A DNA stretch of 64,000 nt, from contig CP133159.1 in assembly GCA_030913385.1 (NCBI GenBank), positions 640,584 through 704,583 of the forward strand. The letters run 5' to 3'. The notes beneath the pieces were generated by a model. It had not been told where the DNA came from and did not search any database. It worked only from the letters and a program-made list of their open reading frames with translations. The stretch comes from Cytophagaceae bacterium ABcell3 (GTDB lineage Bacteria > Bacteroidota > Bacteroidia > Cytophagales > Cytophagaceae). The number at the start of each line of letters is the position of its first letter. The stretch's first letter is position 1. Shown here piece after piece: positions 14,952-49,867 of the stretch. Position numbers and translations under genes: made by a program.

Positions 14952-15122
14952 TAACCTGGATTATTCGTTAGATTTCGTTATGAGGGGCAAAATAACAAAA
15001 AATCAGCGTATTTGGTTTGCAAAGCATAGTGGTTCTATGGTTAAAAACCAAATGCGAGCGAAGCGTCTGATTTGGAGTTATTTTGCCACGCAATAGAAAG
15101 TTCTAATGCATGTTTCAGGTTT
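14952..15122 (+). repeat. MITE-like repeat copy A (about 170 bp, TTAA-flanked, CCTGGA...TTCAGG termini)
   Basis: About 90% identical to the reverse complement of 33284..33452. It abuts the stop codon of the DHS-like gene. Confidence 0.8.
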
Positions 15123-15126
15123 AAAG

Positions 15127-16104
15127 TTACCACCCTAAAATATGGGCAAACATTAATGGCGCTACTATGGTCGCGTCGCTTTCCACTATAAACTTAGGGG
15201 TATTAATATCAAGTTTTCCCCAAGTAATTTTTTCATTAGGCACAGCACCTGAATAAGAGCCATAGGAAGTGGTAGAGTCAGAAATTTGACAGAAGTAGCT
15301 CCAAAATGGGACGTCATGCCACTCGAGATCCTGATACATCATCGGCACAACACAAATCGGAAAATCTCCGGCTATACCACCACCAATTTGGAAGAAACCA
15401 ACCCCTTTGCCTCCTGAGTTTTCTTTGTACCATTGGGTAAGGTATGTCATGTATTCGATGCCACTTTTCATCGTAGAGGGCTTAAGTTCCCCTTTTATGC
15501 AGTATGATGCAAAAATATTCCCCATGGTGCTATCTTCCCACCCTGGAACTATGATTGGAAGGTTTTTCTCCGCTGCAGCCAACATCCAGCTGTCTTTCGT
15601 GTCTATTTCATAGTGCTCTTTCATTGCACCAGAAAGCAGCAGTTTATACATATATTCATGTGGTAAATACCGCTCGCCTTTTTCTTCTGCCTCTTTCCAA
15701 ATTTTAAAAATATGCTTTTGAATCCTTCTGAAGGCTTCTTCTTCGGGAATGCAGGTGTCGGTAACCCTATTATAGCCATTTTCCAATAACTCCCATTCCT
15801 CTTGAGGGCTAAGGTCTCTATAATGTGGTACGCGCTTATAGTGTGTGTGCGCCACCAGGTTCATGATATCTTCCTCAAGGTTTGCCCCGGTACAGGAAAT
15901 AATTGATACCTTGTCCTGGCGAATCATTTCGGCAAGGGAAAGCCCGAGCTCTGCGGTGCTCATAGCTCCGGCAAGGGTAATCATCATTTTGCCACCTTCG
16001 TTCAGGTGTGTTACATAGCCTTTGGCGGCATCCATCATTGCGGCAGCATTGAAATGGCGGTAGTGGTGCGCCATAAATTGGGAAATGGGTCCTTGTGTTG
16101 TCAT
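15127..16104 (-). CDS. Deoxyhypusine synthase-like protein
   Basis: LAGAMSTAELGL...SCTGANLEEDI and a C-terminal ITWGKLDINTPKFIVESDATIVAPLMFAHIL match the DHS family. Confidence 0.75.
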   Translation of the reverse strand: MTTQGPISQFMAHHYRHFNAAAMMDAAKGYVTHLNEGGKMMITLAGAMSTAELGLSLAEMIRQDKVSIISCTGANLEEDIMNLVAHTHYKRVPHYRDLSPQEEWELLENGYNRVTDTCIPEEEAFRRIQKHIFKIWKEAEEKGERYLPHEYMYKLLLSGAMKEHYEIDTKDSWMLAAAEKNLPIIVPGWEDSTMGNIFASYCIKGELKPSTMKSGIEYMTYLTQWYKENSGGKGVGFFQIGGGIAGDFPICVVPMMYQDLEWHDVPFWSYFCQISDSTTSYGSYSGAVPNEKITWGKLDINTPKFIVESDATIVAPLMFAHILGW

Positions 16105-16414
16105 CTTTTTTAATTTTTATGCTTTTTTAACTGAATTTGGCCTTTTGCTTAAAACTTTCACAAATTTTACTATTTAACTGAATTTTGTAACAAAAAATTA
16201 AAAAATTATTCTAGCATTAATTTCTAAACCTGGAATATGCACGAGAATTTGCTATTGCCCCTATTGACGAAATCTATTGCTTTAATTATCTGCAAAAACA
16301 CATGAGTTAGGTTAGCAGTTCACAAGATTAGAATGATCAGAGTGCTTTCTTAAATCAAACATAGTCATTGGTGGCAGGTTATTTTTTAATGAGAAACCAG
16401 ATGATCGACAGACT

Positions 16415-16792
16415 ATGGAATATATAATGGGAAAAACGCATTGGGCAATTGCAGAAGGGCTTATTCCTGATGAAAGTACAGGGCCGGAGCCAGAAATGGA
16501 AAGTCATGAGACGGCTTGCATCTTAAATACCAGTGACCAAGATGCACATGTAGAAATCATGATATACTTTAAAGGTAAAGACCCTGTAGGGCCATATAAA
16601 TATACGGTCCCGGCAAAAAGGGTTGAGCATATTCGTTTTAACAACTTAAATGATCCGGAGCCAATTCCTCGGGGCGAAGATTATGCAAGCACTATTATTT
16701 CAGATGTTCCAATAGTTGTGCAGCACTCCCGGTTAGATTCACGCCAATCTGAAAATGCATTGATGACAACCATGGCTTATGCCGCTACTTAA
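16415..16792 (+). CDS. Sensory rhodopsin transducer-like protein (ASRT family)
   Basis: 125 aa. WAIAEG, GPEP, SHETxCILN, VGPY and VPIVVQHSRLDSRQSENAL match my recollection of ASRT/TM1070-type proteins. Confidence 0.6.
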   Translation: MEYIMGKTHWAIAEGLIPDESTGPEPEMESHETACILNTSDQDAHVEIMIYFKGKDPVGPYKYTVPAKRVEHIRFNNLNDPEPIPRGEDYASTIISDVPIVVQHSRLDSRQSENALMTTMAYAAT

Positions 16793-16855
16793 ATTCGGTT
16801 GGGCAAGACTAATTAAAGTTAATTTAATTCATGGGTTGCATGTAAAATAGGTTTT

Positions 16856-18511
16856 ATGGTAAATCAATGGTATAAAAGTGCTGTTGTCTATGGCATTGAT
16901 GTAAAGGTTTTCAGTGATTCGGATGGGGATGGAATGGGAGATTTTCAAGGGCTTATCAGTAAACTCGACTATCTTTCTTCCTTAGGGGTAAATTGCTTAT
17001 GGTTGTTGCCATTCCACCCGTCACCTAAAATAGACAATGGATATGATGTAGCAGATTATTATAATGTAGATCCGGCGCTGGGAAACCTTGGGGACTTTGT
17101 TCAGTTTATTCATGAAGCTGACCAAAGAGGCATTAGGGTTATTATGGATTTGGTTATTAACCACACTTCTGTAGAAAATTCGTGGTTTAAAGATGCCAGT
17201 GCCACCAGGGAGTCACGGTATAGAGACTATTATATATGGGAAGACGAGCCGAAGGAAAATAAAGAAAAAGTAATGCTCAAAGGGATACAAGAAAGTATCT
17301 GGGAGTATTCAGAGGCAACGGATTCCTATTACCTACACAGGTATTTTAAAGACCAGGCAGATTTAAATTTGGCCAACCCAAGGGTTCGAAAAGAAGTCCT
17401 TAAGATTATGGATTTTTGGCTTAAGCTAGGCGTTTCTGGTTTCAGGATAGATGCGGCACATGTGGTCACAGACCCCGCTGATGTGGACCATATCGATTTC
17501 GGAAACCTCCACACTTTATTTGATGAGATGCGGGCTTTCCTTGATATCCGTAATCCCAATGCTGTTTTACTTGGTGAAGCGAGTGTGGGACCTGATGAAC
17601 TTCCTAAATACTTTGGCAACAATGAGTCGGGGAAAGAACGAATACACATGCTTTTTAACTTTCTCATTAATAAGCATATCATGTTGTCCTTTGCGAGACA
17701 AGAAGGGGCAACTGTTGCTAAAGGTTTAAAGCTATACAAAGATATAGCACAATCCCATTGGTTAAACTTTGTTCGCCATCATGACGAGCTTAACCTGGAG
17801 CTTCTAAGCGATGATGAACGAATGGAGGTTTGGAATGCTTTTGCCCCGGAAGAAGATATGCGCCTTTTTGGGCATGGTATTAGGAGAAGGTTGCCTCCCA
17901 TGCTAAAAAACAATCATGCGAGGATCCGACAAATTTACAGTCTTATGTTCAGCATGCCTGGTACTCCATTGATAAGTTATGGGGAAGAAATAGGTATGGG
18001 CGACAATCTCAGCCTTGAAGGGCGAGAAAGTGTAAGGACTCCTATGCAGTGGTCTCCTGTAAAAGGTGGCGGCTTCTCAACTGCTGACCCTGAAGACTTG
18101 TACCGGCCAGTGATTGAGTCTGGTGATTATAGTACAGAGAAGATCAACGTCAATGACCAACAGAATGATCCAAGCTCTTTGTTAAACTGGTTCTGTTCCT
18201 TAGTTAAAGTGCGACGGCAGAACCCTGTAATTGGAATGGGTGCGTGGGATATATTAAATGTAAGTGATTCCTGTGCAGTTGCTTTGATCTACGAAATGCC
18301 AGAGGCTACTGTGGTTGTAGCCCATAACCTTTCTCCAGAACCGGTTGAGGTAAGTGTGGATACCGGGTTTCTGCTAAAATCGGCAGTAGAAATTTTTTCT
18401 GATGAAAAATATGACAAGGAAATTCTATTTAACAAGCTAAAGTTAAACGGTTACGGCTATCGCTGGATCCAGGTGCTGGACAAAGAAAAAATAACATTCT
18501 TAAATAATTAG
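16856..18511 (+). CDS. GH13 family alpha-glucan enzyme (trehalose synthase / oligo-1,6-glucosidase-like)
   Basis: WYKSAVVYGIDVKVFSDSDGDGMGDFQGL, the DLVINHTS motif and GFRIDAAHV; 551 aa. Confidence 0.85.
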   Translation: MVNQWYKSAVVYGIDVKVFSDSDGDGMGDFQGLISKLDYLSSLGVNCLWLLPFHPSPKIDNGYDVADYYNVDPALGNLGDFVQFIHEADQRGIRVIMDLVINHTSVENSWFKDASATRESRYRDYYIWEDEPKENKEKVMLKGIQESIWEYSEATDSYYLHRYFKDQADLNLANPRVRKEVLKIMDFWLKLGVSGFRIDAAHVVTDPADVDHIDFGNLHTLFDEMRAFLDIRNPNAVLLGEASVGPDELPKYFGNNESGKERIHMLFNFLINKHIMLSFARQEGATVAKGLKLYKDIAQSHWLNFVRHHDELNLELLSDDERMEVWNAFAPEEDMRLFGHGIRRRLPPMLKNNHARIRQIYSLMFSMPGTPLISYGEEIGMGDNLSLEGRESVRTPMQWSPVKGGGFSTADPEDLYRPVIESGDYSTEKINVNDQQNDPSSLLNWFCSLVKVRRQNPVIGMGAWDILNVSDSCAVALIYEMPEATVVVAHNLSPEPVEVSVDTGFLLKSAVEIFSDEKYDKEILFNKLKLNGYGYRWIQVLDKEKITFLNN

Positions 18512-18514
18512 ACA

Positions 18515-19483
18515 ATGATGAAACTAGGTTACCATATATCACATGAGCAGTTTTCGCCAGCAGACCTTTTAAGGTATGTGAAGAAAGCTGAGGAAGCAGG
18601 TTTTCAATTTGCTTTGTCTTCTGATCATTTTCACCCGTGGAACAATGACCAAGGGCACTCTGGGTTTGCCTGGGCGTGGTTAGGAGCGGCTATGGCACAA
18701 ACGGATTTGAATTTTGGTGTAGTCAATTGCCCAGCGTACAGATACCATCCAGCTATTATTGCTCAGGCTGCAGCCACACTGGACAATATGTTTCCTGATA
18801 GGTTTTGGATGGCCATAGGTAGCGGTCAGGCGTTGAATGAAGCTATTAACGGAGAGCATTGGCCAGCCAGGGAAGAACGTAACAACAGGCTTAAAGAGGC
18901 AGCGGATATAATGGAAACTTTATGGAGAGGCGATTCTGTTACGCGTCATGGAGTGATTAAAGTGGAGGAGGCCAAGCTTTACACACTTCCACAAAGAAAA
19001 ATTCCATTGATTGGGGCAGCCATTACGCCGGACACAGCTGCTTGGCTGGCTACCTGGGCTGATGGCATGATCACCATTTCACAACCTGTCCAGCAATTGC
19101 AAAAAGTGGTAGATGCGTGGAAAAACAATGGCGGAGAAAATAAGCCGATGGTCCTAAAGGTGCAGGTCTCTTATGACAAGTCTGACGAGGAGGCTGTAAA
19201 AGGAGCACATGAACAATGGAAAACAAATGTTTTTGGGAGTGACATGCTTGCGGAACTAAGGACACCTCTTCAATTTGAGCAGGCTGCCATGCATGTGAAG
19301 CCGGAAGAGCTTCATGGACACGTAAATATGTCCAGTGACCCAGGGCGACATATCGATTGGTTAAATCAGTATATGGAGATGGGCTTTTATGAACTTTCTA
19401 TTCATAATGTCAATAAGAAGCAAGAGCAGTTTATTGATGCTTTTGGCGAGAAAATCATCCCAGAGTTGATGGTGACGCACTAA
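18515..19483 (+). CDS. LLM-class flavin/F420-dependent oxidoreductase (Fgd/G6PD-like)
   Basis: MKLGYHISHEQFSP...SSDHFHPW...CPAYRYHPAIIAQAAATLD resembles the F420-dependent G6P dehydrogenase family. Confidence 0.7.
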   Translation: MMKLGYHISHEQFSPADLLRYVKKAEEAGFQFALSSDHFHPWNNDQGHSGFAWAWLGAAMAQTDLNFGVVNCPAYRYHPAIIAQAAATLDNMFPDRFWMAIGSGQALNEAINGEHWPAREERNNRLKEAADIMETLWRGDSVTRHGVIKVEEAKLYTLPQRKIPLIGAAITPDTAAWLATWADGMITISQPVQQLQKVVDAWKNNGGENKPMVLKVQVSYDKSDEEAVKGAHEQWKTNVFGSDMLAELRTPLQFEQAAMHVKPEELHGHVNMSSDPGRHIDWLNQYMEMGFYELSIHNVNKKQEQFIDAFGEKIIPELMVTH

Positions 19484-19515
19484 TGTAGAATTTCAATTAT
19501 GATAAACATATAACT

Positions 19516-19815
19516 ATGGAGAGCTACATGCCAGTGCCTTGGGACTTTAGGGAAATGGTAGAAGAGGCAATTAAGCAGGAAGCCTCGGGAACTATCAATT
19601 ATTTTGGAGAAAACGATGCCATACTTTCGGTAATGGGGGCAGTTGAAGAACAACAGGAAATCCCTGGTGAAGGGGAGTTTTTGGTAATGGATTCGGGAAA
19701 GCTTGTCCGTATGGATTTGGTGATTACCTTGTTTGGCAAGCCGGGGCCTGCTTTTGATAAGTATGATGGGTTTGCCAATGAATGCCTTTCTTGTACAGGA
19801 GGCTATGATTTATAA
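19516..19815 (+). CDS. Hypothetical small protein
   Basis: The ORF sits directly downstream of the LLM gene and is followed by a terminator. Confidence 0.3.
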   Translation: MESYMPVPWDFREMVEEAIKQEASGTINYFGENDAILSVMGAVEEQQEIPGEGEFLVMDSGKLVRMDLVITLFGKPGPAFDKYDGFANECLSCTGGYDL

Positions 19816-19821
19816 ACAACA

Positions 19822-19850
19822 AAAGAGCCGACAAAGGCTCTTTTGTTTAT
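19822..19850 (+). terminator. Rho-independent terminator
   Basis: AAAAGAGCCGACAAAGGCTCTTTTGTTTATTTT. Confidence 0.75.
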
Positions 19851-19873
19851 TTTGCTTTTACTAAGGCAGGCCA

Positions 19874-20422
19874 TTAACTTACATACTGTACTGTCTGTCT
19901 GATAGGAAATCTTTTGAAAATCTTATGAACGGTTTTAGAAATATTTCTTCCTGTAAACGTTCTGCTGTCTACTACATCTGAATAGGTGCCGCTCCAAACA
20001 ATTTTATTTGTTTTCTGGTCTATAGCATTGATAGTGATAGTCGCATGTTGATAATGTATAGGGTATGTGTGATAACCTGCGACTCCCCAATGAGGCCCCC
20101 AGCCCCAACCCCACCATGGAGACATTCCCCATATAGGTTGCATGCCTACGGTTCTTCTTTTGTTGACTTTTACCTTGAAGTCCAACAAAAGATCTGGATT
20201 TATGCTGTCGCCCCTAAATCCGCGGTTATGCATTTCCCTATTAGCGGCATGGTGTATGTTTCCGTGAAGTATCGAACGAGGTTCCCCGTCATCTTCATGT
20301 TTGATCCATGCGTAAGTACGATAGTTTGTAAAATCTGCTCCAGCAACTTTGTCGGAATAGATGTTTCTGTTACATGCTCCTAATATTGGGATCAGTAGCA
20401 GTAAAAAATATAGCTTTTTCAT
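19874..20422 (-). CDS. Trp-rich lipoprotein, hypothetical
   Basis: MKKLYFLLLLIPILGACN lipobox; contains WWGWGWGPHWG. Confidence 0.55.
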   Translation of the reverse strand: MKKLYFLLLLIPILGACNRNIYSDKVAGADFTNYRTYAWIKHEDDGEPRSILHGNIHHAANREMHNRGFRGDSINPDLLLDFKVKVNKRRTVGMQPIWGMSPWWGWGWGPHWGVAGYHTYPIHYQHATITINAIDQKTNKIVWSGTYSDVVDSRTFTGRNISKTVHKIFKRFPIRQTVQYVS

Positions 20423-20475
20423 TTGATGCAGTTGTTGACTTTTGAGAATTAACGTTAATGGGTGTGGGATTGGTT

Positions 20476-20660
20476 CTTTAAGCGCATTAAAAATGCATTA
20501 AAATAAGCGGGTTTAGGGGTTTATGTTCTCTAGGGTATTACTTGTTGGTGAAAAACACCAACAAGGGGGGGGGCTTTATGCTCATTAAAAATGCATTAAA
20601 ATAAGTGGCCGGGGTTTATATTACTTGTTGGTGAAAAACACCAACAAGAGGGGGAGGGGA
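20476..20660 (+). repeat. Two tandem units of a palindromic-hairpin repeat (TTGTTGGTGAAAAACACCAACAA followed by a G-run)
   Basis: Units at 20476..20572 and 20581..20660 share ATTAAAAATGCATTAAAATAAG...TTACTTGTTGGTGAAAAACACCAACAAGRGGGGG. Confidence 0.8.
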
Positions 20661-20775
20661 AAGCGGGGTAAAAAAGAAGTGCCTACGCTGGGGCAAGTTT
20701 TTTTTTAATTGAAATAGCCTTGACATAAAGCATGTCAAGGCTGTGGGTTATGTTCTAAGAGATGATTGTTGTTGT

Positions 20776-21000
20776 TTAATCCCCCTTATTTATCTTCTTG
20801 TCAGAAACAGGGCCTGAACCATATTTATAATGATCACCTCCTCCTTTGTTCTTATTTTTGGCACCGGCTGCGTTTGACACATCTCCTGGGTTGCCAGCTT
20901 CTTCTCTATATTTTTTCTTTTTGACCATGTCTATTTTTTCCATGCCTGCTCCCGGTGCATGTGACGGACGGTTCTGGTTTTCTTTATTTTTAGTTCCCAT
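20776..21000 (-). CDS. Small Lys/Gly-rich hydrophilic protein (possibly a KGG-type stress protein)
   Basis: 74 aa, very basic and hydrophilic, with a GAKNKNKGGGDHYKYGSG segment. Confidence 0.3.
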   Translation of the reverse strand: MGTKNKENQNRPSHAPGAGMEKIDMVKKKKYREEAGNPGDVSNAAGAKNKNKGGGDHYKYGSGPVSDKKINKGD

Positions 21001-21140
21001 AATATATCGGTTTTTTAATCTTTATTTCATAAACATGAATTTTTTGTCTTATTGTTCATAGGCTGCTGTAGGTATGGTTAGGAGGTCGTTAAGAGAACGC
21101 AAAAGCTTCTCTTGTTGTTTTTATTTAAAAGCGGAAGACT

Positions 21141-21755
21141 ATGAAGGTGGATGAAAAGTTGAAAGAAGTTGTAGAAAGGGAAAGCCAGGTTTTACAGGGG
21201 GAAGAAGGGAGAAGCGCTATATATTATAGCAGGAAAGCCTTTGATTATGCAGAAGAGGCGGAAGAAGCCTATAGGCAAGCCGTTGATAAGTTATTTGATG
21301 TTAACGGTTGGAGTGATATAGGTGGACTTACTACGGCCAAATTTTCTTTGTATGACCCAGATGGTAAACCTACAGATCATTTAGAGCTAGGATGTTTTGT
21401 TAAAGTTGAACTGCCTGGCCCTTTTCCTGAAAACTGGGTTAGGGTAAATGAGGTTTACGAAGAGGATTTTGTCGCAGAGTTTAAAGTACACCCTTCGCAC
21501 AGTCCTCTAAATAAAGAGCATCAGGAAGTGGTAGATCATTTTTTTACGAGTGATGCAAGCAGTTCTTTTCGTGTTACATTGAAAGAGAAGCTACTTTCTG
21601 CCTATGAAATTGGAAGGGACGAATATATCAACAACCGTGACGAAGAGTCCGGAGACAGGAAAGTTACCAATACACTTATTTCTGAGGGTGGCTGGATGGC
21701 TTTCCAGAAAATTCAATGGCAGAGCTTAACGGATTATTTGGTAGGAGAATCTTAA
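21141..21755 (+). CDS. Hypothetical protein
   Basis: A 204-aa ORF followed by an intrinsic terminator. Confidence 0.45.
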   Translation: MKVDEKLKEVVERESQVLQGEEGRSAIYYSRKAFDYAEEAEEAYRQAVDKLFDVNGWSDIGGLTTAKFSLYDPDGKPTDHLELGCFVKVELPGPFPENWVRVNEVYEEDFVAEFKVHPSHSPLNKEHQEVVDHFFTSDASSSFRVTLKEKLLSAYEIGRDEYINNRDEESGDRKVTNTLISEGGWMAFQKIQWQSLTDYLVGES

Positions 21756-21783
21756 TAAAACCTTAAACTTGTGTAGCATGAGG

Positions 21784-24264: not shown

Positions 24265-24285
24265 CTGTTGAAAAAATAAACCTTT

Positions 24286-27554: not shown

Positions 27555-27675
27555 GGTATGTTAACCTGAATAACTTCAAATCAGTCGCGTCTTTCACATT
27601 TTATCTTAACCATAGCGTTGCTATGCTTTGCGACCTCAAAGTGCTGACCTCTTGTTGTTTTGCTCCTAATGATGA
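27555..27675 (-). repeat. MITE-like repeat, degenerate copy D
   Basis: TTAACCTGAATAACTTCAAATCAGTCGCG...CATAGCGTTGCTATGCTTTGC aligns with copy B. Confidence 0.55.
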
Positions 27676-27745
27676 AATTTATCGGCACAACTTAGGCTAA
27701 AGGAATAAAAAAGGAGCCAGTGATTAGCTCCTTTATCTGCTTTGT

Positions 27746-33047: not shown

Positions 33048-33055
33048 TAGCTCTA

Positions 33056-33097
33056 ACCTGAAATACCTAATAGAAAGTTCTATTACGTATTTCAGGT
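33056..33097. repeat. 42-bp near-perfect palindrome built from MITE terminal sequence
   Basis: ACCTGAAATACCTAATAGAAA|GTTCTATTACGTATTTCAGGT has arms 19/21 complementary. The right arm matches the MITE 3' terminus AGAAAGTTCTAATGCATGTTTCAGGT. It lies 9 nt after the flotillin stop. Confidence 0.8.
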
Positions 33098-33283
33098 TTG
33101 CATAAAAAATTATTTGGTCCGAATGGTGCGATAAGCCTTACTATGGGGCAAAAACACAGTAATCCAGCGTATTATTGCGGTAATGCTGATGTTTTGATGT
33201 AAAAGCTTTTGTCATTGTAATAGCTTTATTGCTCCTTCCGGATCAAAGACACTCCGGGGCTTTTAGTGCCGGAGTGTATATTA

Positions 33284-33452
33284 ATCCTGAAATATGCATT
33301 AGAACTTTCTGTTTCGTGTCAAAATAACTTCAAATCAGACGCTTAGCTCGTATTTGGTTTTTAACCATAGAACCACTATGCTTTGCAAATAAAATACGCT
33401 GATTTTTTGTTCTTTTGCCCTCATAACGAAATCTAATACATATCCAGGTTAA
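33284..33452 (-). repeat. MITE-like repeat copy B (TTAA-flanked)
   Basis: Reverse complement about 90% identical to 14952..15122; TTAA at both borders. Confidence 0.85.
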
Positions 33453-33499
33453 TTGTCCCTGATCATAAATATTTTCCGGAATTAAACTTTCACCCTTCC

Positions 33500-40499: not shown

Positions 40500-41954
40500 T
40501 TATAATTTTACCCACTTCCCGGGTAGCAGTTCTTCCAGCCTGTTTACCGGGTGATTGTCTATTCTTTCCAGAACATCTTTCATCCATTCCAATGGGTTTA
40601 CACCGTTGATTTTGCAGCTTGCCACAAGCGAGTATATTTGGGCGGCTCTCTGGGCAGCATCATGTGAACCGGCAAACAGATAATTTTTCCTTCCTATGGC
40701 TACTGGCCTTATTGAGTTTTCCACCAGATTGTTATCTATCTCCAGCTTGCCATCCTCAAGATATATGGAGAGCCTTTCCCATCTGCTCAAGGAGTATTCG
40801 AGCGCCTTTCCAATAGGACTCCTAGGGGCAATATTAGGGTACAGGTTTTTCATCCATTCTTCCAGGTCGTCCAATGTTGTTTTTGCATCAAGCCTTGATT
40901 CCTTTCTTTCTTCAAAAGACATCCCGGCCTCCCTTGCTTTACGCTCAATATCATATAACTTCTGAAATTCTTTCAAGGCATGTTCTGCATTTTCTTTGTC
41001 ATTGTCCAATGCTTTCTCAAACATCCTTCTGGCATGTGCCATACAATGGAACAATGTTATGCCCTTGATGTTGGCAAACATATCATATACGTTATACCCG
41101 TCACATTGCAGGTATCCCTGAAAACCCTTCAGTATATCTGATGGCCCTTCGCTCCCGCGCCCGGGACGATAGTCGAACAGCACCTGTTTCCCGACAGGGT
41201 CATAATATACCCAGTAATACCCCCGGTGGATTTTACTTTTTTTATCCTTGTCGAGAACTTTTATGGGTGTCTCGTCTGCCATCAGGTAACCGGCTTGCAG
41301 TGTCCTCTTTTTATGCAGTTCGTATAAGATTTTAAGCTTGTTTACCCCTTGTTTTACCCAGTCTGACATTGTGGAAGAAGGAAAATTAAGGCCTTCTCTC
41401 TTAAATATCTGTATCTGGCGGTATAAAGGAAGGTGGTCAACATACTTGCTGACAACAAGGAAAGCGACAAGGCTTGCTCCGGCTATCCCTTTCTCTATCG
41501 CCCTGTATGGCAATTCTCCAATGGCAACACCCTCCCCTTCAGGTTTTGCGTATTTCGGGCGTACAATTTTGCGCACATGAAACTTTCCGGTGGTATATTC
41601 AAGAACCTCTGTCACCTCTTCCCCAATTTTTTTCATGCCTGAGGTATCTTCTTCAGGCTCAACAACCTCTTCCACCCTTGGTACATGTGCCGGTATAGGG
41701 AGGCGGCCCGGGTGCTTGCGGGCTGTTTCTTTTTTGACACGCTTAAACCTGACGACCTCCTCTTTTTCAGGGGCAGTTGCCTGCTCTTCACCAAGTCCCA
41801 GGTTTAACTGTTCCGGTGCGGACGAAGGCACAAAACGCTCGCTTTTGGTGCCATATATGAGGCGCTTCAGCTCTTTGAGCTCAAACTTCAAAAGTGCGAT
41901 CTCGGACATCGCCTCCTCATATTTTTCTTTATAGTCTATACCTTCGGCAAGCAT
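40500..41954 (-). CDS. IS66 family transposase (TnpC)
   Basis: 484 aa; LQCDGYNVYDMF and AHARRMF are typical of the IS66 DDE transposase. Confidence 0.85.
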   Translation of the reverse strand: MLAEGIDYKEKYEEAMSEIALLKFELKELKRLIYGTKSERFVPSSAPEQLNLGLGEEQATAPEKEEVVRFKRVKKETARKHPGRLPIPAHVPRVEEVVEPEEDTSGMKKIGEEVTEVLEYTTGKFHVRKIVRPKYAKPEGEGVAIGELPYRAIEKGIAGASLVAFLVVSKYVDHLPLYRQIQIFKREGLNFPSSTMSDWVKQGVNKLKILYELHKKRTLQAGYLMADETPIKVLDKDKKSKIHRGYYWVYYDPVGKQVLFDYRPGRGSEGPSDILKGFQGYLQCDGYNVYDMFANIKGITLFHCMAHARRMFEKALDNDKENAEHALKEFQKLYDIERKAREAGMSFEERKESRLDAKTTLDDLEEWMKNLYPNIAPRSPIGKALEYSLSRWERLSIYLEDGKLEIDNNLVENSIRPVAIGRKNYLFAGSHDAAQRAAQIYSLVASCKINGVNPLEWMKDVLERIDNHPVNRLEELLPGKWVKL

Positions 41955-42010
41955 GTTGCAAAGATAAATAATATACCTATGTAGGTGGTATTAGGAAAAA
42001 AAGAATAAGT

Positions 42011-42370
42011 TTAAAGATTTCCAGGACTTTTATATCTTTTGCGGTGCCTGACCGACTCAAGGGAAATCCCTTGTAAGACCAGTTGCAATACCGAGGCGGA
42101 TATTTCAGATTTGGTCACATTTTTGCAATGGACAGGTATTTCATAAGTCCCTCTTTCAAGGCGTTTGTGATACATACTGAAACCGTCGCCTTCCCATAAA
42201 AGGAGCTTGACATGGTTTCGGTTTCGGTTCAGGAAAATAAAAATGTCCCCGTTCATGGGGTTTTCGTTAAGTTTGCTCCTTACAATACCTGATAGGCTGT
42301 CAAACCCTTTCCGCATGTCGGTTTTGCCCGAATAGAGAAAGTACCTGCACTGGTGAGACAATGAAAGCAT
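42011..42370 (-). CDS. IS66 accessory protein TnpB (Orf2)
   Basis: GKTDMRKGFDSLSGIV...FIFLNRNRNHVKLL. Confidence 0.8.
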   Translation of the reverse strand: MLSLSHQCRYFLYSGKTDMRKGFDSLSGIVRSKLNENPMNGDIFIFLNRNRNHVKLLLWEGDGFSMYHKRLERGTYEIPVHCKNVTKSEISASVLQLVLQGISLESVRHRKRYKSPGNL

Positions 42371-42372
42371 GG

Positions 42373-42672
42373 CTAGCTGACTAATTGTTTAACAAATGAT
42401 GGATCTGCCATGCCGTGGAATATGACCTTGGCACCGGAAGGAAAGACAACTTCCATGTTGCCGGCCGCAGGGTTAATTTCATCAGGGCTGCTTACTTTCA
42501 GAGGGACAAATCCGGTACCGGGCTCCTCTGTTCTATATTTGCCGCACCAATAGATGAATTTTTGATAATTGATGTTCTGCCGAAGGCTAAATTCTTTTTT
42601 ACTGATACCGCTTTGTTGCCAGAGCTGATAAAGCTCACGCATCTGGTCAGATACTTTTGTGTTTGTTGCCAT
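42373..42672 (-). CDS. IS66 Orf1 (TnpA, HTH)
   Basis: 99-aa protein upstream of tnpB inside the IS boundaries. Confidence 0.7.
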   Translation of the reverse strand: MATNTKVSDQMRELYQLWQQSGISKKEFSLRQNINYQKFIYWCGKYRTEEPGTGFVPLKVSSPDEINPAAGNMEVVFPSGAKVIFHGMADPSFVKQLVS

Positions 42673-43125: not shown

Positions 43126-43764
43126 ATGAAAACCTTCCATCTAATACTTTTATTTTCAATTATTTTTACTTCCTGTGACTGTAATCAAAGGGTTTTAGGA
43201 ACTGTAATAGATAAAAAAACAAGAAAACCTCTTGAGGGAATTAGTGTGTATAATAAAAATAAAAGATGGAATGTGACCAATACTGATTCTACTGGAAAAT
43301 TTATATTATCAAATGTTTCTGGCGGATTTCGTTGTCCACCAATGACAGTGATAATTGAAGACTCTAGTTACAATTATTTTGAAACTAAAATTCCATCAGG
43401 TAAAGGCAAAATTATTGAATTGACTAAAAAAGATTCCTTAAATCAATTTGTAAAACAAATAATGGATTCAGGGAAATATGGAGTGTATGCAGATTGGTCA
43501 AATTTTATTGAGATTAAATTTATTAATAATGAACAATTTGAACTTGTGAATCAACAAACCATAGGAAGTCAAGGTGTATTCATAATGGAAGGCAAGTGGA
43601 AAGTTAAGGAGGGGGATATTGTTTTGTATAAAATAAAAATCATAGAAAAGTCTTTGAAAGTTGATATACCCAAACAATGGAGAATAATTAATGACGAATT
43701 GTGCCCCATAGATACGACTAATTCCGACTTAAACTATTGCCTAAAACCCGTAAGAAATGATTAA
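43126..43764 (+). CDS. Lipoprotein with carboxypeptidase-regulatory-like domain
   Basis: MKTFHLILLFSIIFTSCDCN lipobox; GTVIDKKTRKPLEGISVY...TDSTGKF. Confidence 0.55.
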   Translation: MKTFHLILLFSIIFTSCDCNQRVLGTVIDKKTRKPLEGISVYNKNKRWNVTNTDSTGKFILSNVSGGFRCPPMTVIIEDSSYNYFETKIPSGKGKIIELTKKDSLNQFVKQIMDSGKYGVYADWSNFIEIKFINNEQFELVNQQTIGSQGVFIMEGKWKVKEGDIVLYKIKIIEKSLKVDIPKQWRIINDELCPIDTTNSDLNYCLKPVRND

Positions 43765-43828
43765 CGCCCTATAACAACTATGGCTTCGTTAGGTATGTAA
43801 TGCCCACAATGAAGCCAGTGTTGTACGA

Positions 43829-44108
43829 AACCGGGGGTAACGCTATGGGGGGTGCTATTCTGGGTTGGGGTTTTCTGTAGGTTAGAATTGGGAACTAATG
43901 CAGCTTTTTGCAAAGTATAACAAGTCAGAACAGGGTCTATGGTTGGCTTAAAAGGATAAGGAGGCAGTTCTCACTCCTGTTCTAACATTGGTAATTAGGA
44001 TTTGAATAGGCTAACGCTTAAGATTGTATAACAAGAGCCGTATGATGGGAGACTATCAAGTACGGTTCTGTGAGAGGCTTGGGGTGAAATTCCCCTTGCC
44101 TACTCGAC
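43829..44108 (+). mobile_element. Group II intron remnant (domains V and VI intact, ORF-less; 5' boundary uncertain)
   Basis: Domain V GAGCCGTATGATGGGAGACTATCAAGTACGGTTC (44035-44068) matches the group II DV consensus GAGCCGUAUG...ACGUACGGUUC. DVI AGGCTTGGGGTGAAATTCCCCTTGCCT-A-CTC carries a bulged A 6 nt before an ...AC 3' end at 44108. Confidence 0.6.
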
Positions 44109-44221
44109 TATCAACGGTAATATTTATGTAAAAAGGAGCCCAGAAATTCTCTCACAGGTGTTATAGAAAATATTATCTTTGAAATCTATAACAATTGCGA
44201 TAGAATTTCATTGTATTGTAA

Positions 44222-45271
44222 ATGAGCGAAATAGTAGCCTATAAAGATTTTTATAAAGAAATAATTGATACGATTAATGCCAGAAGATATAAGGCATATA
44301 AATCGTTGAACAGGCATCACATAGAACACAATTTTGAACTTGGTGAAATAATTGTAAAACATCAGGAAAAACAAAAGTGGGGACAATCAATAGTTGAGAA
44401 ACTTTCTAAAGATATTACCAAGCAAATTGATGGACTAACAGGTTATTCGCCTCAGAATCTATGGAAAATGCGTCAATTTTATCTTGAATATAGAGAGAAA
44501 ACTGTACTGTATGAATTAGCCAAACAAATTCCGTGGGGACAAAATATGCTAGTTCTCCATCAGGTAAAAGACGACAATGAACGAAGGTACTATTTAGAAG
44601 CAACAGCAAGGTTGGGGTGGAGTCGAGCTGTTTTGTTAAATCAAATTAAAGCAGATGCTTATAAGCATCATGTGTTAGATAAGAAGTTAAGCAATTTTGA
44701 AGCTGCGTTACCGTCACATCTATCAGAACAAGCAAATGAAGCTTTAAAAAGTGAATATAATCTTGATTTTCTCGGAATTACCAAACCTGTCCATGAACGA
44801 GAAATTGAAAATAGACTAATTGAAAATATTCGCGATTTATTACTTGAGTTAGGATATGGATTTAGTTTTATAGGAAATCAGTATCGGTTAACATTGAACA
44901 ACAAAGAGTATTTTATTGACTTGCTTTTTTATCACCGGTTTTTGAAATGCTTGGTTGCAATTGAATTAAAAACTGTTGAATTTGAGCCTGAATTTGCAGG
45001 AAAAATGAATTTTTATCTTGAACTTCTCGACAGTAAGGAAAAGCAAGCAGATGACAATCCTTCAATTGGGATTATTCTATGCCCGACAAAAGACGATATT
45101 GAGGTTGAATTTGCTCTGAGGTCTAGTAATAAACCCATTGGTGTATCTGAATATAAATTAACTCATGAACTTCCTGAAAATCTAAAAGGAAAAGTTCCTA
45201 CTTCGAAAGAATTAAAACAAATGCTAACAATAGCTATTAGTAATGCAGGCGGTTCAGCTAAAGGAATATAA
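44222..45271 (+). CDS. YhcG/DUF1016-family PD-(D/E)xK nuclease-like protein
   Basis: The C-terminal YFIDLLFYHRFLKCLVAIELK core matches how I remember the DUF1016 family. Confidence 0.6.
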   Translation: MSEIVAYKDFYKEIIDTINARRYKAYKSLNRHHIEHNFELGEIIVKHQEKQKWGQSIVEKLSKDITKQIDGLTGYSPQNLWKMRQFYLEYREKTVLYELAKQIPWGQNMLVLHQVKDDNERRYYLEATARLGWSRAVLLNQIKADAYKHHVLDKKLSNFEAALPSHLSEQANEALKSEYNLDFLGITKPVHEREIENRLIENIRDLLLELGYGFSFIGNQYRLTLNNKEYFIDLLFYHRFLKCLVAIELKTVEFEPEFAGKMNFYLELLDSKEKQADDNPSIGIILCPTKDDIEVEFALRSSNKPIGVSEYKLTHELPENLKGKVPTSKELKQMLTIAISNAGGSAKGI

Positions 45272-45330
45272 TACTCCCCAATTTTCAGACCACTACTTTA
45301 ATTGATTTATAATCGTTAAATTAGTGAAAT

Positions 45331-45624
45331 ATGAAAGGAAAAAGAAGAAAGTTTACTGCCGCATTTAAAGCACAAGTTGCTGTTGAAGCTTTAAAAGAAA
45401 GAGATAGTTTGGCAGATTTGGCAAGTCGTTTTGAGGTTCACCCTAATATGATCAGTAAGTGGAAGCAAGAGTTTCTTGAAAGGTCCTCAGCAGTCTTTGA
45501 GAAAGACAGTTCAGAGCAAAATCAGGAGCCTTCTATTGATCCTGAAAAGCTTTATGCAAAAATTGGCAAGCTTGAACTGGAGAATGACTTTTTAAAAAAA
45601 AGCTTAGGAAAGTTGGGGAAGTAA
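45331..45624 (+). CDS. IS3 family transposase OrfA (HTH)
   Basis: MKGKRRKFTAAFKAQVAVEAL...; leucine-zipper end. Confidence 0.85.
   Translation: MKGKRRKFTAAFKAQVAVEALKERDSLADLASRFEVHPNMISKWKQEFLERSSAVFEKDSSEQNQEPSIDPEKLYAKIGKLELENDFLKKSLGKLGK
45592..45599 (+). other. A7G -1 programmed frameshift motif joining orfA to orfB
   Basis: TTTTAAAAAAAAGC. The -1 frame reads ...KKLRKVGEVKSLCSMVDTDHK, continuous with OrfB. Confidence 0.7.
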
Positions 45625-45638
45625 AATCTCTTTGTTCT

Positions 45639-46445
45639 ATGGTAGATACTGATCACAAGCTAAGTATTCGCTCCCAATGTGAGATTTTAAATATAAACCG
45701 TAGCAGGTTTTACTACTCTCCTGTTGGAGAAACTGAAGAAAACCTTAAAATAATGAGGGTTTTAGATGAACGGTACCTTCATAAACCTACACATGGTGTT
45801 TTGCAAATGCAGGACCACCTGAGAGATCTTGGTTTTACAGTAAACCATAAGCGAGTTCGTCGCCTATTGAGGCTTATGGGACTTATGGCCATTTACCCTA
45901 AAAAAAACCTCAGCAAGTTAGGCAAAGCTAAGTATATTTATCCCTATTTACTGAGAAACCTGGATGTTGAACGTACAAATCAGGTTTGGGAGATTGATAT
46001 AACATATATCCCGATGAAAAAAGGTTTTATGTACTTGACAGCCATTATCGATGTCCATAGCAGATATGTAGTTGGCTGGGGAGTATCAAACACACTCAGC
46101 GCTCAGTCGAGCCTATCGGTGCTGAAAGAAGCAGTAAGCAGGTATGGGAAGCCAGAGATAATAAACTCTGACCAAGGCAGCCAGTTTACCTGTGGAGAAT
46201 GGGTAAACCTGTTACAAGAAATGAGAATTAAAATCAGCATGGACGGCAAGGGAAGAGCCATTGACAATATTTATATAGAAAGGCTCTGGCGAACTGTAAA
46301 GCAAGACTATGTATACCTACATCCTGCTAAAGACGGTTTGGAACTTTACCAAGGGCTTGCTATATTCTTTGAGTTTTACAATTATGAAAAACACCATCAG
46401 GGAATAGAGCGACAGGTGCCATCAGATGTTTATTTAGCAGCATGA
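45639..46445 (+). CDS. IS3 family transposase OrfB (DDE integrase core)
   Basis: DDE motifs; HTH_21-like N-terminal region. Confidence 0.85.
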   Translation: MVDTDHKLSIRSQCEILNINRSRFYYSPVGETEENLKIMRVLDERYLHKPTHGVLQMQDHLRDLGFTVNHKRVRRLLRLMGLMAIYPKKNLSKLGKAKYIYPYLLRNLDVERTNQVWEIDITYIPMKKGFMYLTAIIDVHSRYVVGWGVSNTLSAQSSLSVLKEAVSRYGKPEIINSDQGSQFTCGEWVNLLQEMRIKISMDGKGRAIDNIYIERLWRTVKQDYVYLHPAKDGLELYQGLAIFFEFYNYEKHHQGIERQVPSDVYLAA

Positions 46446-46639
46446 GATACTGTTTTTCCTTACAATAGCAAAGGTAGCATGGTTATTTAACCTGTCAAGG
46501 CCAAGTGAATTCCTCCCTCCGGTCGGAAGCCTTGACAGATTAAATCTCCATTGCTAATATGCAATTGAAAGGAAAAAAAATATTAACTTAGAAATGAAGT
46601 GTAGTGGTCCTATGGATAGGTAGTATTATACTGTTCATA

Positions 46640-46867
46640 GGAGAAGAATACAAATTACAAGTTGGAAATAGCGATTTTTACATAGACTTGCTATTTTACC
46701 ATCGTGGTTTACAATGCTTAGTGGCTTTTGAACTTAAGGCAGATAAGTTTAAACCTGACCATTTAGGACAACTAAACTTTTATTTGGAAGCTTTAGACCG
46801 AGATGTAAACAAAATGAAAATCCAAGTATGGGGGTATTGTTGTGCAAAGACAAAGACAGTGAAGTAG
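46640..46867 (+). pseudogene. 5'-truncated DUF1016/YhcG paralog (C-terminal PD-(D/E)xK core only)
   Basis: YKLQVGNSDFYIDLLFYHRGLQCLVAFELKADKFKPDHLGQLNFYLE aligns to the C-terminus of 44222..45271 at about 55% identity. It begins at the IS3 right end. Confidence 0.65.
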
Positions 46868-47265
46868 TTGAGTATGCATTAAGTAGAAGCCTATCTCCTA
46901 CAATGGTATCAGAATAAAAAACACAGTTACCTGATAAAAAGCTTTTACAGAAAAAACTACACGAACTATTTAATAATCAATCAAACCTATGAATAAAAGA
47001 GTCGCAGCTGCCAACAAGCTATGGTTTTTGCGAGGGTGCAGTTGAAGCTTTACAAATCAAGTAATTAAGCTGTAATAAATCTTTATTATTTTCCTCCTTG
47101 GCTGGTAAAAATTAACCTCACCCTGGTCGTGTCTCTTTACCGACCAGCCACTGCTGTTGCTGTTTATTTGAATGGCAAATCTATGGTAGCGCAAAAGCTG
47201 AGATACATCCAGAGAGACTGAGGGTTATTACAAGCCAAAGAATAGTAAAGTGTTTCCTTAGTTCA

Positions 47266-49413
47266 TTAACAAAGATGTGTGTTTTTTGGTACTTTCAGTG
47301 ATAGCATATAATTCAGCAGCACCTGTTTTTTAGAAAAGTGGACTTGGTTTGCTACAAAAATAAAATTGCCGAGCGCAGAAAACAAGGTGTGGAGGGCCAG
47401 TTCATTATATTCTGTTTCATAAAAGTAAGTCAGGTTTCGAGACAAGTATTCCTCAAAGGCTTTGCGGGCGTCTTCATTTACCTCTGGTGAATATGATTCG
47501 TTGTTAAGTATGTCCGATATATGGTTTTTTAATTCCACCTCAAGCAAAGCCAGTGCCTTGAGGTTTTTCTGAATGACCTCAAAAGGAGTTGTAAAGTTAA
47601 TGAATTCCGTTGCTTCTGTTATTTTATTATATAGTTCTGTTTTTCGTAAATAATCTTCGTCTCTTTCTTTAAATGATCTGAACAGCTCTGTATATGTTGT
47701 TGCTGAGCCTGCTTGTCTGGCAAGATTAAGGAAATGGCAATAAATGGCTTTGTCATTTTCGGCAATATTGGCTTGCAGTTTCATCAGGTTTTCTGTGAGT
47801 TTCGGGATTAGCTTTGGGGCTTCCTGGGACTTGTATTTTTGTCCGTCATAGGCAAAACTCTTTATCTTGATTTTTTTGGAGGCAATTTGTTTGATAACAG
47901 CTAGGTCATTCTCAAGGGCAATGGAGACGTATACCATATCTGTTCTGGCCGGACTGAAAAACTTTTCCGAATCTTCTTGGAATGGTTCATTGCAGACGGA
48001 TGGCTCATAGTAAACAGGGTTTTTATTGTCATAATACCCGTTAAATGTCTTGTCGAAACTTAAGGCTAGAACCTCTTGATGGTACGCTTTAAAGAAGTCC
48101 TCGGTGCTATAACTTTCAGGCTCTTTTTCATATTCTACATTAGCGAATATTTTTTCGGTTTGCAGTACCTGAACTTTTTCAGGATTTGTCAAAAGGTTGT
48201 TAGCAGGAGAGTTGCTGCCTTTTTTCTGAATGTTCAGCTTGTCCAGCGCTAAAGCTCGTTCCTCCACAGGAGGGTGTGAAGCCCACTGGTCTTTTATTGA
48301 AAGCTTGGATTTGTTGTACCTACTTAGGTCTTCAGGTTTTACAGTGGGGAAGCCCACATTGAACTTTAGATTGCTTTCTTTTGCTTGGAAGTTCATTACC
48401 AGTGTTTGCTCTTTGAAGATATTTTGGCTTCTGATACATGAAGGTACTTTTTGATCATAAAAGGATAAGACAGCGCTGTAAGAATAATCTGCAAGGTCTA
48501 ATCTTAGTAAAGCTGTTTTCAATGCTTCTGAACCTGCAACATTGGCTGCAACTTCATCTGCATGAAACTCCATTTCCCTCGATAGCCCCATATAACTCAA
48601 GTTAATGAAGTCGTATAGTTTTTTCAGTATCCACTGAATACCCTTAATGATTTGAACCGAGATGTAAACAAAAATTGCAAAGTATCCGATGAAGTTGGCC
48701 CATTTCTCAATCATTTTTTCAAACGATTCATTTTCATAGAGCATGTTATAAATTACCTGATTCACATTATATACATAGCTTCCTACCTTCATGCTTTTCT
48801 GCGAAAAATGCCCCAACTCATGGGCGATGATTGCTTTAAGCTCATTTTCAGATACCGTATTAACAAGACCCATCCCGATTTGCAGGTTCTTTTTGACGGG
48901 AAGAAACATACTCCAGAAACCAGAGTCGTAGAAAACACTTGCATTTACTTCAGGTGATAGATATACTTTTTTAGGGAAGGTTGTATTGGTTTCGCGAACT
49001 ATTTCCTCTATAAAAGAAAAAAGGCGGGGTTCCTCTTCCCGTGTAATTTCTGTCAGATGCGTGCGGTCGGTTTTGTGTTTTTTGAAAATGAACTTTATTA
49101 GAAATATAAGTATCAGAAAGCCCAGGCTTATTAGTCCGGCACCGACGCCAACGGTAAGGAAATTGGGTTTTGCTGCTATTATAACTATTCCAGCCGCCGC
49201 ACAAGCTAGTGTCAGGGCAACAGCAAGTCCTGCCATAATAATATAGGTGACGGTAAAAATCAAAATTGCTGCAATTGCCTGAGTTGCCTTTTTCTTAAAG
49301 GTATTAGATACTTTTATATTCATGTGATGTTTTGTTTCTAGTGAAGATAAAATACGTAAGAATTGTGATAAAGATATTGGGTTTTTCAATAACTTGATGC
49401 CATGTTTAGTCAT
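47266..49413 (-). CDS. M48/M56-family zinc metallopeptidase with TM N-terminus and large C-terminal extension
   Basis: HExxH in IIAHELGHFSQKSM; N-terminal TM helices. The start may be the internal Met near 49320. Confidence 0.65.
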   Translation of the reverse strand: MTKHGIKLLKNPISLSQFLRILSSLETKHHMNIKVSNTFKKKATQAIAAILIFTVTYIIMAGLAVALTLACAAAGIVIIAAKPNFLTVGVGAGLISLGFLILIFLIKFIFKKHKTDRTHLTEITREEEPRLFSFIEEIVRETNTTFPKKVYLSPEVNASVFYDSGFWSMFLPVKKNLQIGMGLVNTVSENELKAIIAHELGHFSQKSMKVGSYVYNVNQVIYNMLYENESFEKMIEKWANFIGYFAIFVYISVQIIKGIQWILKKLYDFINLSYMGLSREMEFHADEVAANVAGSEALKTALLRLDLADYSYSAVLSFYDQKVPSCIRSQNIFKEQTLVMNFQAKESNLKFNVGFPTVKPEDLSRYNKSKLSIKDQWASHPPVEERALALDKLNIQKKGSNSPANNLLTNPEKVQVLQTEKIFANVEYEKEPESYSTEDFFKAYHQEVLALSFDKTFNGYYDNKNPVYYEPSVCNEPFQEDSEKFFSPARTDMVYVSIALENDLAVIKQIASKKIKIKSFAYDGQKYKSQEAPKLIPKLTENLMKLQANIAENDKAIYCHFLNLARQAGSATTYTELFRSFKERDEDYLRKTELYNKITEATEFINFTTPFEVIQKNLKALALLEVELKNHISDILNNESYSPEVNEDARKAFEEYLSRNLTYFYETEYNELALHTLFSALGNFIFVANQVHFSKKQVLLNYMLSLKVPKNTHLC

Positions 49414-49432
49414 GCTTTAGTAAATTAATGTT

Positions 49433-49867
49433 ATGAAAGCCTTTTTCGCTTCCCTTCTTATACTTTTAATCATACCCTGCTCCCTCGGCTATGCACAGAA
49501 TGGTCAGTTACCTTTTGTTAAACCTACCAGAGATGCTCCCTATCGTGTCCGAAAAGAAGATGCTTATAAGCTTCAGGTTTCCCTTAAGGAAAAATATGAC
49601 AGCGGAAGGATTTCGGAGGATTCTGTTGGAAGAGTTTTTTCAGATTACCTTGTCAATAAACTCATTCCTTACTGGTACGGCACAAAGTGGGATTTTGAAG
49701 GACATACAGATGTACCTGGAAAAGGAGAAATAGCCTGTGGCTATTTTGTAAGTACGACCTTAAACCTGGATTATGGATTAGAATTTGTTATGAGGGGTAA
49801 AAGAACAAAAAATCATCGTATTTGGTTTGCAAAGCATAGTGGTTCTATGGTTAAAAACAGGCCTTGA
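49433..49867 (+). CDS. Secreted protein whose 3' end is replaced by MITE sequence
   Basis: Signal peptide MKAFFASLLILLIIPCSLGYAQ. The last ~35 codons (LNLDYGLEFVMRGKRTKNHRIWFAKHSGSMVKN) are encoded by MITE copy C. Confidence 0.5.
   Translation: MKAFFASLLILLIIPCSLGYAQNGQLPFVKPTRDAPYRVRKEDAYKLQVSLKEKYDSGRISEDSVGRVFSDYLVNKLIPYWYGTKWDFEGHTDVPGKGEIACGYFVSTTLNLDYGLEFVMRGKRTKNHRIWFAKHSGSMVKNRP
49762..49856 (+). repeat. MITE-like repeat, partial copy C (5' half)
   Basis: TTAAACCTGGATTATGGATTAGAATTTGTTATGAGGGGTAAAAGAACAAAAAATCATCGTATTTGGTTTGCAAAGCATAGTGGTTCTATGGTTAAAAAC. Confidence 0.8.

Follow-up and report, generated by a model that had tools for sequence, protein, structure and literature searches.

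A dispersed family of hairpin-forming miniature inverted-repeat transposable elements in Cytophagales, probably mobilised by an IS1380-type transposase

A 64,000-nt stretch of the genome of Cytophagaceae bacterium ABcell3 (CP133159.1, positions 640,584–704,583 of the forward strand; the whole stretch is referred to as the window) contains a non-coding repeat, present as seven copies or remnants, whose full-length form measures 162–165 bp. The host is a cellulolytic haloalkaliphile from Siberian soda lakes that represents a novel genus (PMC11700989). One protein from the flanks has an annotated counterpart of 100% identity in this bacterium. In its size, lack of coding sequence, inverted termini, variable 5-bp target-site duplication (TSD) and dispersal over multiple loci the repeat corresponds to a transposable element of the miniature inverted-repeat type (MITE), and we interpret it as a new MITE family that was probably mobilised in trans by a DDE transposase of the IS1380 family. 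The copies form a dispersed, non-coding repeat family with inverted termini, a 5-bp TSD and a hairpin that is maintained by compensating changes, and their decay yields half copies, internally deleted copies and palindromic stubs of 40–50 bp.

Copies in the window were identified by blastn with copy A as the query and by a covariance model built on the family (R1), and remnants E, F and G were identified from blastn, R1 and reading of the sequence. The copies and the apical module discussed below are as follows.

14955–15119, plus strand: copy A, full length, 165 bp (R1 182 bits)
15019–15044, plus strand: apical module of copy A, GCAAAG-CATAG-loop-CTATG-GTTAA, defined by invariant alignment columns
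33286–33448, minus strand: copy B, full length, 163 bp (R1 163 bits)
49765–49858, plus strand: copy C, 5' half only, with TTAAA on its 5' side
27565–27696, minus strand: copy D, 5' end kept, internal deletion in the 3' arm (R1 66.9 bits)
33057–33096, no strand assigned: mini-derivative E, 40 bp long, a palindrome consisting solely of the two termini (R1 31.3 bits on the plus and 30.1 bits on the minus strand)
16229–16280, minus strand: mini-derivative F, 5'-truncated and internally deleted, with the 3' terminus ...ATTCCAGG and subterminal parts of both arms kept
33119–33241, plus strand: copy G, old and decayed, without the apical module (R1 25.8 bits, E ~2e-4)

Copy B is 90.8% identical to copy A over 174 nt (E = 1e-64; match at 33281–33452, minus strand), copy C 90.9% over 99 nt (49760–49858), ending just past the apical hairpin, and copy D 72.6% over 117 nt (27569–27684). 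Copy D belongs to a divergent subfamily with the apical loop CAACG and is nearest to the type found in Roseivirgaceae (78% identity to locus L009; copies and loci in other genomes and metagenomes carry L numbers). Mini-derivative F was detected as two blastn matches, at 16225–16258 and 16255–16276, and copy G is the weakest assignment, the least secure member of the family. The original prediction had described a dispersed repeat with at least four copies, among them a minus-strand copy about 90% identical to A and a 5' half copy, together with a palindromic mini-derivative and the termini CCTGGAT.../...TTTCAGG, and all of these recur in our analysis, the palindrome probably being E. Its degenerate copy at 27555–27675 is present as the divergent and deleted copy D, but with a corrected span on the minus strand, and its size of about 170 bp narrows to the 162–165 bp of the exact element, measured from CC to GG without the 5-bp flanks.

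A reading without any family, in which A/T-rich intergenic palindromes or terminators resemble one another by chance, could appeal to the terminator-like hairpins that adjoin the copies and to weak R1 matches (E ~0.7) that are plain terminators. It is refuted by blastn E values of 1e-64 and 1e-35 in the window, by R1 scores of 150–190 bits elsewhere and by the 26-nt apical pattern, with four occurrences in the window where shuffled sequence would give 0.01, and its probability is negligible. The weak matches, at 14235, 22037 and 57714, are plain hairpins or terminators and were rejected as members; a 17-nt match to the A-type apical loop at 46602–46618 (E ~1) was likewise rejected, as it lies inside YhcG-like coding sequence.

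All 19 of the 19 copies or fragments examined in the window and elsewhere are intergenic, as had been claimed for the listed copies. A position at gene 3' ends, also claimed, holds as a tendency only: copy B is found upstream of a gene for a 1638-aa DUF3686/AAA protein, 52 nt before its start. Copy A does sit by the stop codon of a deoxyhypusine-synthase-like (DHS-like) gene (15127–16104, minus strand; Pfam DS match), as predicted, and separates this stop codon from the gene's terminator-like hairpin.

14914–14952, no strand assigned: terminator-like hairpin, AAAAAGTAGAGG...CCTCTACTTTTT, read by eye, its loop being too long for the automatic scan

A further terminator-like hairpin (27734–27710) directly precedes copy D. 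The 452-bp intergenic region 33048–33499, upstream of the DUF3686/AAA ATPase gene, is an insertion hotspot that holds E, G, the full copy B and a terminator-like hairpin at 33249–33277. The family consensus has stop codons in all six frames and thus no coding capacity, and no copy contains a transposase or an open frame, which bears out the earlier description of the elements as non-autonomous. An almost certainly spurious 144-aa open reading frame (ORF) from the mechanical ORF list, 49433–49867 on the plus strand, crosses copy C and might be misannotated as a gene.

To follow the family beyond the window, species-representative genomes and metagenomes were scanned with the apical pattern. A second Cytophagaceae metagenome-assembled genome (MAG; 21H_023.bin.6) contains at least six copies, a Roseivirgaceae MAG contains one by the pattern scan, and metagenome contigs contain six, four of these contigs ending inside the element, which is to be expected of assemblies that break at repeats. 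The copies in other genomes score 150–190 bits with R1, nothing else at their loci matches the window, and their flanks are unrelated. Copy A is 65–85% identical to copies in other genomes; within a genome, A and B share 90% and the MAG copies 85–98%. This higher identity within than between genomes fits separate bursts of amplification in each lineage. Blastn searches of the phage and plasmid collections gave no match to the element, and IMG/VR gave none with the apical or terminal pattern; the relaxed apical pattern gave seven matches in IMG/VR, all of them chance matches in coding DNA without hairpin context. Literature searches with sequence strings of the element matched unrelated papers only, and those combining MITE with Cytophagales or Bacteroidetes found only an unrelated P. 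gingivalis MITE.

Ten full copies, trimmed to common ends, start with CC(T/C) and end with GG. Their imperfect terminal inverted repeats extend over about 17–20 bp (5' end CCTGGATTATGCGATAG; 3' end, read as its reverse complement, CCTGAAATATGCAATAG), with termini opening CCTGRAWTATGC... and, in L010, the 5' end CCTGAATTATGCATTAG. Immediately outside these ends, eight of the ten full copies are flanked by perfect 5-bp direct repeats.

14950–14954, plus strand: left TSD of copy A, TTTAA, the same as 15120–15124
15120–15124, plus strand: right TSD of copy A, TTTAA, read from the sequence
33281–33285, minus strand: TSD of copy B, ATTAA on the element strand
33449–33453, minus strand: TSD of copy B, ATTAA on the element strand
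TSD sequence TTTAA: copies A, L010 and L008
TSD sequence TTAAA: copies L007, L005 and L009
TSD sequence ATTAA: copy B
TSD sequence TTTAT: copy L006

The variable bases of these repeats co-vary, left with right, and random re-pairing of the flanks reaches eight matches with p = 0.0007. Duplications of 4 bp (TTAA) or 2 bp (TA) were considered and ruled out by A (TTTAA), B (ATTAA) and L006 (TTTAT, which has no TTAA). From the co-variation of the variable flanking bases and the failure of the 4-bp and 2-bp fits we therefore conclude that insertion duplicates an A/T-rich pentanucleotide, with a preference for TTWAA-like targets. The original prediction had read the flanking TTAA as a target duplication or as part of the terminal inverted repeat; neither proposal stands, since the flank is a variable 5-bp A/T-rich direct repeat by which the inverted repeat is not lengthened. 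T-tails of terminator-like hairpins harbour or adjoin several of the insertions, and that of the hairpin at 14914–14952 is the insertion point of copy A.

Comparison of these ends with known insertion sequences (IS) suggests an IS1380-family DDE transposase as the candidate mobilising enzyme. Inverted repeats of the IS1380 family were read directly from annotated records.

ISEcp1: CCTAGATTCTACGT / CCTAAATTCCACGT
IS1678 (1678 bp): CCTGAATAATTCATA, with a TGATT(T) repeat in the flanks
IS1247: CCCACATTTCCC / CCTGCATTCCCC (also as CCCACATTT... / CCTGCATTC...)
ISEcp1-like elements from a Labilibaculum MAG and from metagenomes: CCGGAATTCCACGTC; for one that splits an NrfD gene, a duplication of TATTT was reconstructed

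The signature CCTnnATT is common to the MITE termini, ISEcp1, IS1678 and the right repeat of IS1247. Of 16 bases, the MITE termini share up to 12 with the repeat of IS1678, the first seven being identical in L010, and likewise up to 12 with the left repeat of ISEcp1. Five-bp direct repeats are made by ISEcp1, at A/T-rich sites (PMC7527135), and by IS1247 (PMC3281130, Table 2). IS1380 transposases form the prokaryotic outgroup of piggyBac (PMC10813416), which accounts for the earlier impression of a TTAA element. The duplication of five A/T-rich base pairs points to an IS1380-type rather than a piggyBac-like transposase, and together with the CC termini it provides good circumstantial support for a partner of the IS1380 type.

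It is improbable that the family is a MITE served by some other transposase, such as a bacterial piggyBac-like enzyme targeting TTAA, an IS630/Tc1 enzyme targeting TA, an IS5/IS427 enzyme, one of the Tn3 type that gives rise to TIMEs, or an enzyme of the IS3/IS2, Tn7 or Mu types, whose duplications are 5 bp long. Several transposase families make 5-bp duplications (ISfinder tables), TTAA lies within most of the flanks, and the search for a partner identified none, all of which leaves room for such an enzyme. However, copies A, B and L006 are incompatible with a duplication of 4 bp (TTAA) or 2 bp (TA), and the MITE termini begin with CC, whereas IS3, Mu and Tn7 begin with TG and Tn3 with GGGG. 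The termini moreover match the directly read IS1380 repeats, and the IS3 and IS66 ends in the window are unrelated to them.

These two units are the transposase loci seen in the window. The IS66-family unit (40500–42672, minus strand) encodes a TnpC-like transposase of 484 aa, an IS66 Orf2/TnpB-like protein of 119 aa and a 99-aa ORF. The IS3-family orfA/orfB pair (45331–46445, plus strand) is followed by a separate 137-bp foldback at 46447–46583 with 55-nt arms that are 75% complementary. Beyond it, at 46604–46867, another YhcG-like gene is represented by a C-terminal fragment, which shares 52% identity with the product of the YhcG/DUF1016 nuclease gene at 44222–45271. A duplicated nuclease gene thus appears to have been interrupted by the IS3-family unit or to lie next to it. 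Among ISEcp1 relatives, transposases 84–90% identical to that of ISEcp1 are common in environmental metagenomes, including a MAG of Labilibaculum (Bacteroidota) (L018–L022), which bears on the natural reservoir of ISEcp1. The ends of these homologues are typical of their family and differ from those of the MITE, and plasmids searched by tblastn yielded no member from Bacteroidota.

The whole element folds into a single foldback structure, with a predicted stability for copy A of −62.9 kcal/mol (z = −7.8). Across the ten-copy alignment, 95.6% of the cells in the 57 consensus pairs are paired (96.9% in the terminal helix), compared with 86% for shuffled partners, and the value drops to about 40% when partners are slid by 1–3 columns. 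Both sides have changed at 19 of the 57 pairs, mostly in the two inner helices; in one compensated example GGTTT/AAACC is replaced by GCGTA/ACGC, TGTGTA/ACACA or ATGGAT/CATGG. The unpaired loops are asymmetric and as well conserved as the stems. An apparent 10-nt bulge of the 3' arm folds into a mini-hairpin whose stem has 2 bp and whose loop reads RAA; it occurs as GC-GAA-GC, GU-GAA-AC and AC-GAA-GU; from this covariation we conclude that the core is a three-way junction of the element with its apical hairpin and the mini-hairpin. The strand bearing GCAAAG...GGTTAAG is the more stable one in 10 of 10 copies with DNA parameters and in 9 of 10 with RNA parameters, and the helices contain 23 G.U cells and 6 A.C cells. 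We take this strand asymmetry as moderate evidence, the counts not being independent as the copies are related.

Conservation peaks at the centre. About 30 nt at the hairpin tip are invariant in all ten copies, whereas the ends differ between copies (CCTGG, CCCGG, CCCAC). In the genome scan the apical module also turned up outside the phylum, at two orthologous loci in Zetaproteobacteria MAGs and at one locus of Thiomicrorhabdus marina.

L001, 1698–1943, minus strand: proteobacterial hairpin with the apical module
L004, 2937–3182, plus strand: proteobacterial hairpin with the apical module
L002, 3777–4022, minus strand: proteobacterial hairpin with the apical module

At these loci the same module stands atop long hairpins whose stems are otherwise unrelated to the Cytophagales family. 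The inner stem is followed by a mini-hairpin AC-AAA-GT or AC-GAA-GT, and the G.T wobbles fall on the same strand. The gene contexts differ, one being the interval between a cysZ-like and a uup-like gene and the other the region upstream of a JmjC gene. By our own arithmetic the pattern, with 21 specified bases, is expected about 0.27 times by chance in the collection, and the agreement extends to four of the five loop bases that the pattern leaves unspecified; we therefore do not regard the recurrence as a chance match. It is conceivable, if on balance doubtful, that the central module of about 60–70 nt, consisting of a stem, GCAAAG-CATAGC-NNN-GCTATG-GTTAAG and the RY-RAA-RY mini-hairpin, is an autonomous, strand-specific RNA or single-stranded DNA (ssDNA) motif, ancient or horizontally shared between Bacteroidota and Proteobacteria, that in Cytophagales was captured by, and travels as a passenger of, an IS1380-type MITE. 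If so, the family would act as a carrier that plants a structure with a regulatory or protein-binding role at many places.

The structural data also bear on the reading of the repeat as a structured non-coding RNA, that is, a small RNA gene or an element of untranslated regions (UTRs) such as an RNase III or stability hairpin, in which the termini would simply be the base of a helix. Strong covariation, conserved unpaired loops and the three-way junction would be expected of such an RNA, as would the excess of G.U over A.C cells, the greater stability of one and the same strand and the 5'-UTR-like positions of the module in Proteobacteria. Yet no Rfam 15 family matches any copy at the gathering threshold (matches at E ≤10 are only noise) or the proteobacterial hairpins, so that the shared segment is a repeat dispersed over unrelated loci rather than a catalogued RNA; the latter outcome would have spoken against the original prediction. 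A scan for sigma-70-type promoters found no promoter-like site inside any copy, nor did we see a Bacteroidetes-type −7 box (TAnnTTTG) by eye. The copies show no consistent orientation relative to the flanking genes, A, B and C, the youngest three in the window, being antisense and eight copies elsewhere sense, and orientation is mixed within the window itself; these mixed orientations argue against a simple role at the mRNA level and against a replication-strand role. An RNA origin does not explain the variable 5-bp duplications either, and half copies and stubs are typical of decaying transposons. We thus consider it unlikely that the family is an RNA first and foremost.

A strand-specific fold that holds with DNA parameters invites comparison with systems that move as ssDNA hairpins, namely REP/REPIN sequences with their RAYT (HUH) enzymes, PATEs of the IS200/IS605 group and integron attC sites. 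Mini-hairpins of the GCGAAGC type are exceptionally stable as DNA, and attC sites and REPs are also found at gene 3' ends. Such systems leave no duplications of variable sequence, though, and eight of the ten full copies have them; REPs measure 20–40 nt, an integron-like array is absent, and the 64 kb contain copies in both orientations. Pfam scanning of 20 window ORFs, among them all those beside copies, revealed no integrase, tnpA(Y1) or RAYT gene (about 29 others lay outside the scan). We regard an origin of this kind as very improbable.

A MITE mobilised by an IS1380-type transposase remains the best explanation, and several observations weigh against it. No autonomous element with the same termini was found in the window, whose IS66- and IS3-family units end differently, or among the ISEcp1 homologues from metagenomes and the Labilibaculum MAG, the contig collections searched not including the ABcell3 genome. 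R1 has no match in the loci of IS1678 and IS1247 or within ISEcp1-like elements, and the MITE interior shows no detectable similarity to these IS1380 members. The similarity of the termini to IS1380 repeats, at 10–12 of 16 bases, is suggestive and falls short of proof. The centre is the best-conserved part of this family, whereas in a typical MITE the termini are, and a module shared with non-homologous proteobacterial hairpins is not explained by a plain origin as a deleted IS. Finally, no empty site was recovered, relatives of the flanking genes being non-syntenic, and mobility and TSD rest on the comparison of copies. For the GH3 gene beside the L013 copy, the comparison returned one identical and filled contig (L032) and relatives of about 70% identity that are non-syntenic; homologues of the DHS-like gene are too conserved to single out close relatives.

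The conserved structure could be accommodated by a mechanism in which the element, in single-stranded or cruciform form, has its two ends brought into proximity or is bound by a factor of the host or the transposase, which would aid propagation. A factor bound at the central junction may help the element to propagate in this way, and any influence that RNA hairpins in UTRs exert on neighbouring genes would be a by-product.

Genome plasticity can be followed conveniently with this family in a lineage about which little is known, the soda-lake, cellulose-degrading Cytophagaceae of a novel genus. The family explains contig breaks in related metagenome assemblies, and masking or annotating it avoids spurious ORFs such as 49433–49867. 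The proposed partner would tie a MITE to IS1380, the family of ISEcp1, which mobilises blaCTX-M, and a prokaryotic relative of piggyBac. Should the central module have a function of its own, a transposon would be shown to distribute a structured motif.

Two further features of the window were noted in passing. At 44033–44108 (plus strand) lies an Rfam match to group II intron domains V/VI (66.5 bits) without an adjoining reverse-transcriptase ORF, between a CarboxypepD_reg-like ORF (43126–43764) and the YhcG/DUF1016 nuclease gene; it may be a truncated or ORF-less remnant. The gene at 16415–16792 (plus strand; Pfam E = 1e-54) belongs to the ASRT family (Anabaena sensory rhodopsin transducer), with no recognisable rhodopsin gene among its immediate neighbours, for which Pfam coverage was partial.

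Among known systems, the IS1380 elements ISEcp1, IS1678 and IS1247 share with the MITE the CC termini, the CCTnnATT signature and the 5-bp A/T-rich TSD. The MITE differs from them in lacking a transposase, in its length of 165 bp versus about 1.66–1.68 kb and in an interior with no detectable similarity to theirs. The literature matches described no IS1380-derived MITE, which is absence of evidence only. The piggyBac MITEs of eukaryotes are similar in their CC(C) start and TTAA-containing target, IS1380 being the outgroup of piggyBac (PMC10813416), but the piggyBac TSD is exactly TTAA (4 bp), whereas the duplications here span 5 bp and include TTTAT and ATTAA, and the host is bacterial. REP, BIME and REPIN sequences are likewise intergenic, hairpin-forming, abundant and often located after genes; unlike the MITE, REPs are only 20–40 nt long, are mobilised by RAYT as ssDNA and have neither TSD nor IS-type inverted repeats.

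Also comparable are the Correia elements (CREE/NEMIS) of Neisseria, which are non-coding and abundant between genes, about 100–155 bp long, bounded by inverted termini, co-transcribed into hairpin RNA that is cut by RNase III, and equipped with a central IHF site. In the MITE an invariant AAATCAG...CTGATTT pair flanking the centre resembles the IHF half-consensus WATCAR. Correia elements differ in duplicating TA, in their 26-bp repeats of unrelated sequence and in the phylum of their hosts, and to our knowledge no conserved three-way junction has been reported for them. The ERIC (IRU) sequences of Enterobacteria and Vibrio are imperfect palindromes of about 127 bp, intergenic and transcribed, with compensatory changes and an orientation-dependent effect on mRNA stability. 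Their sequence is unrelated and they have no clear transposase partner or regular TSD, unlike the MITE with its 5-bp TSDs and IS-like termini. Hairpin MITEs that retain their structure through compensatory changes are well known from Correia and ERIC elements. The family described here is thus new, but its kind is known, and it is mildly notable for its link to IS1380 and for a conserved centre that recurs across phyla.

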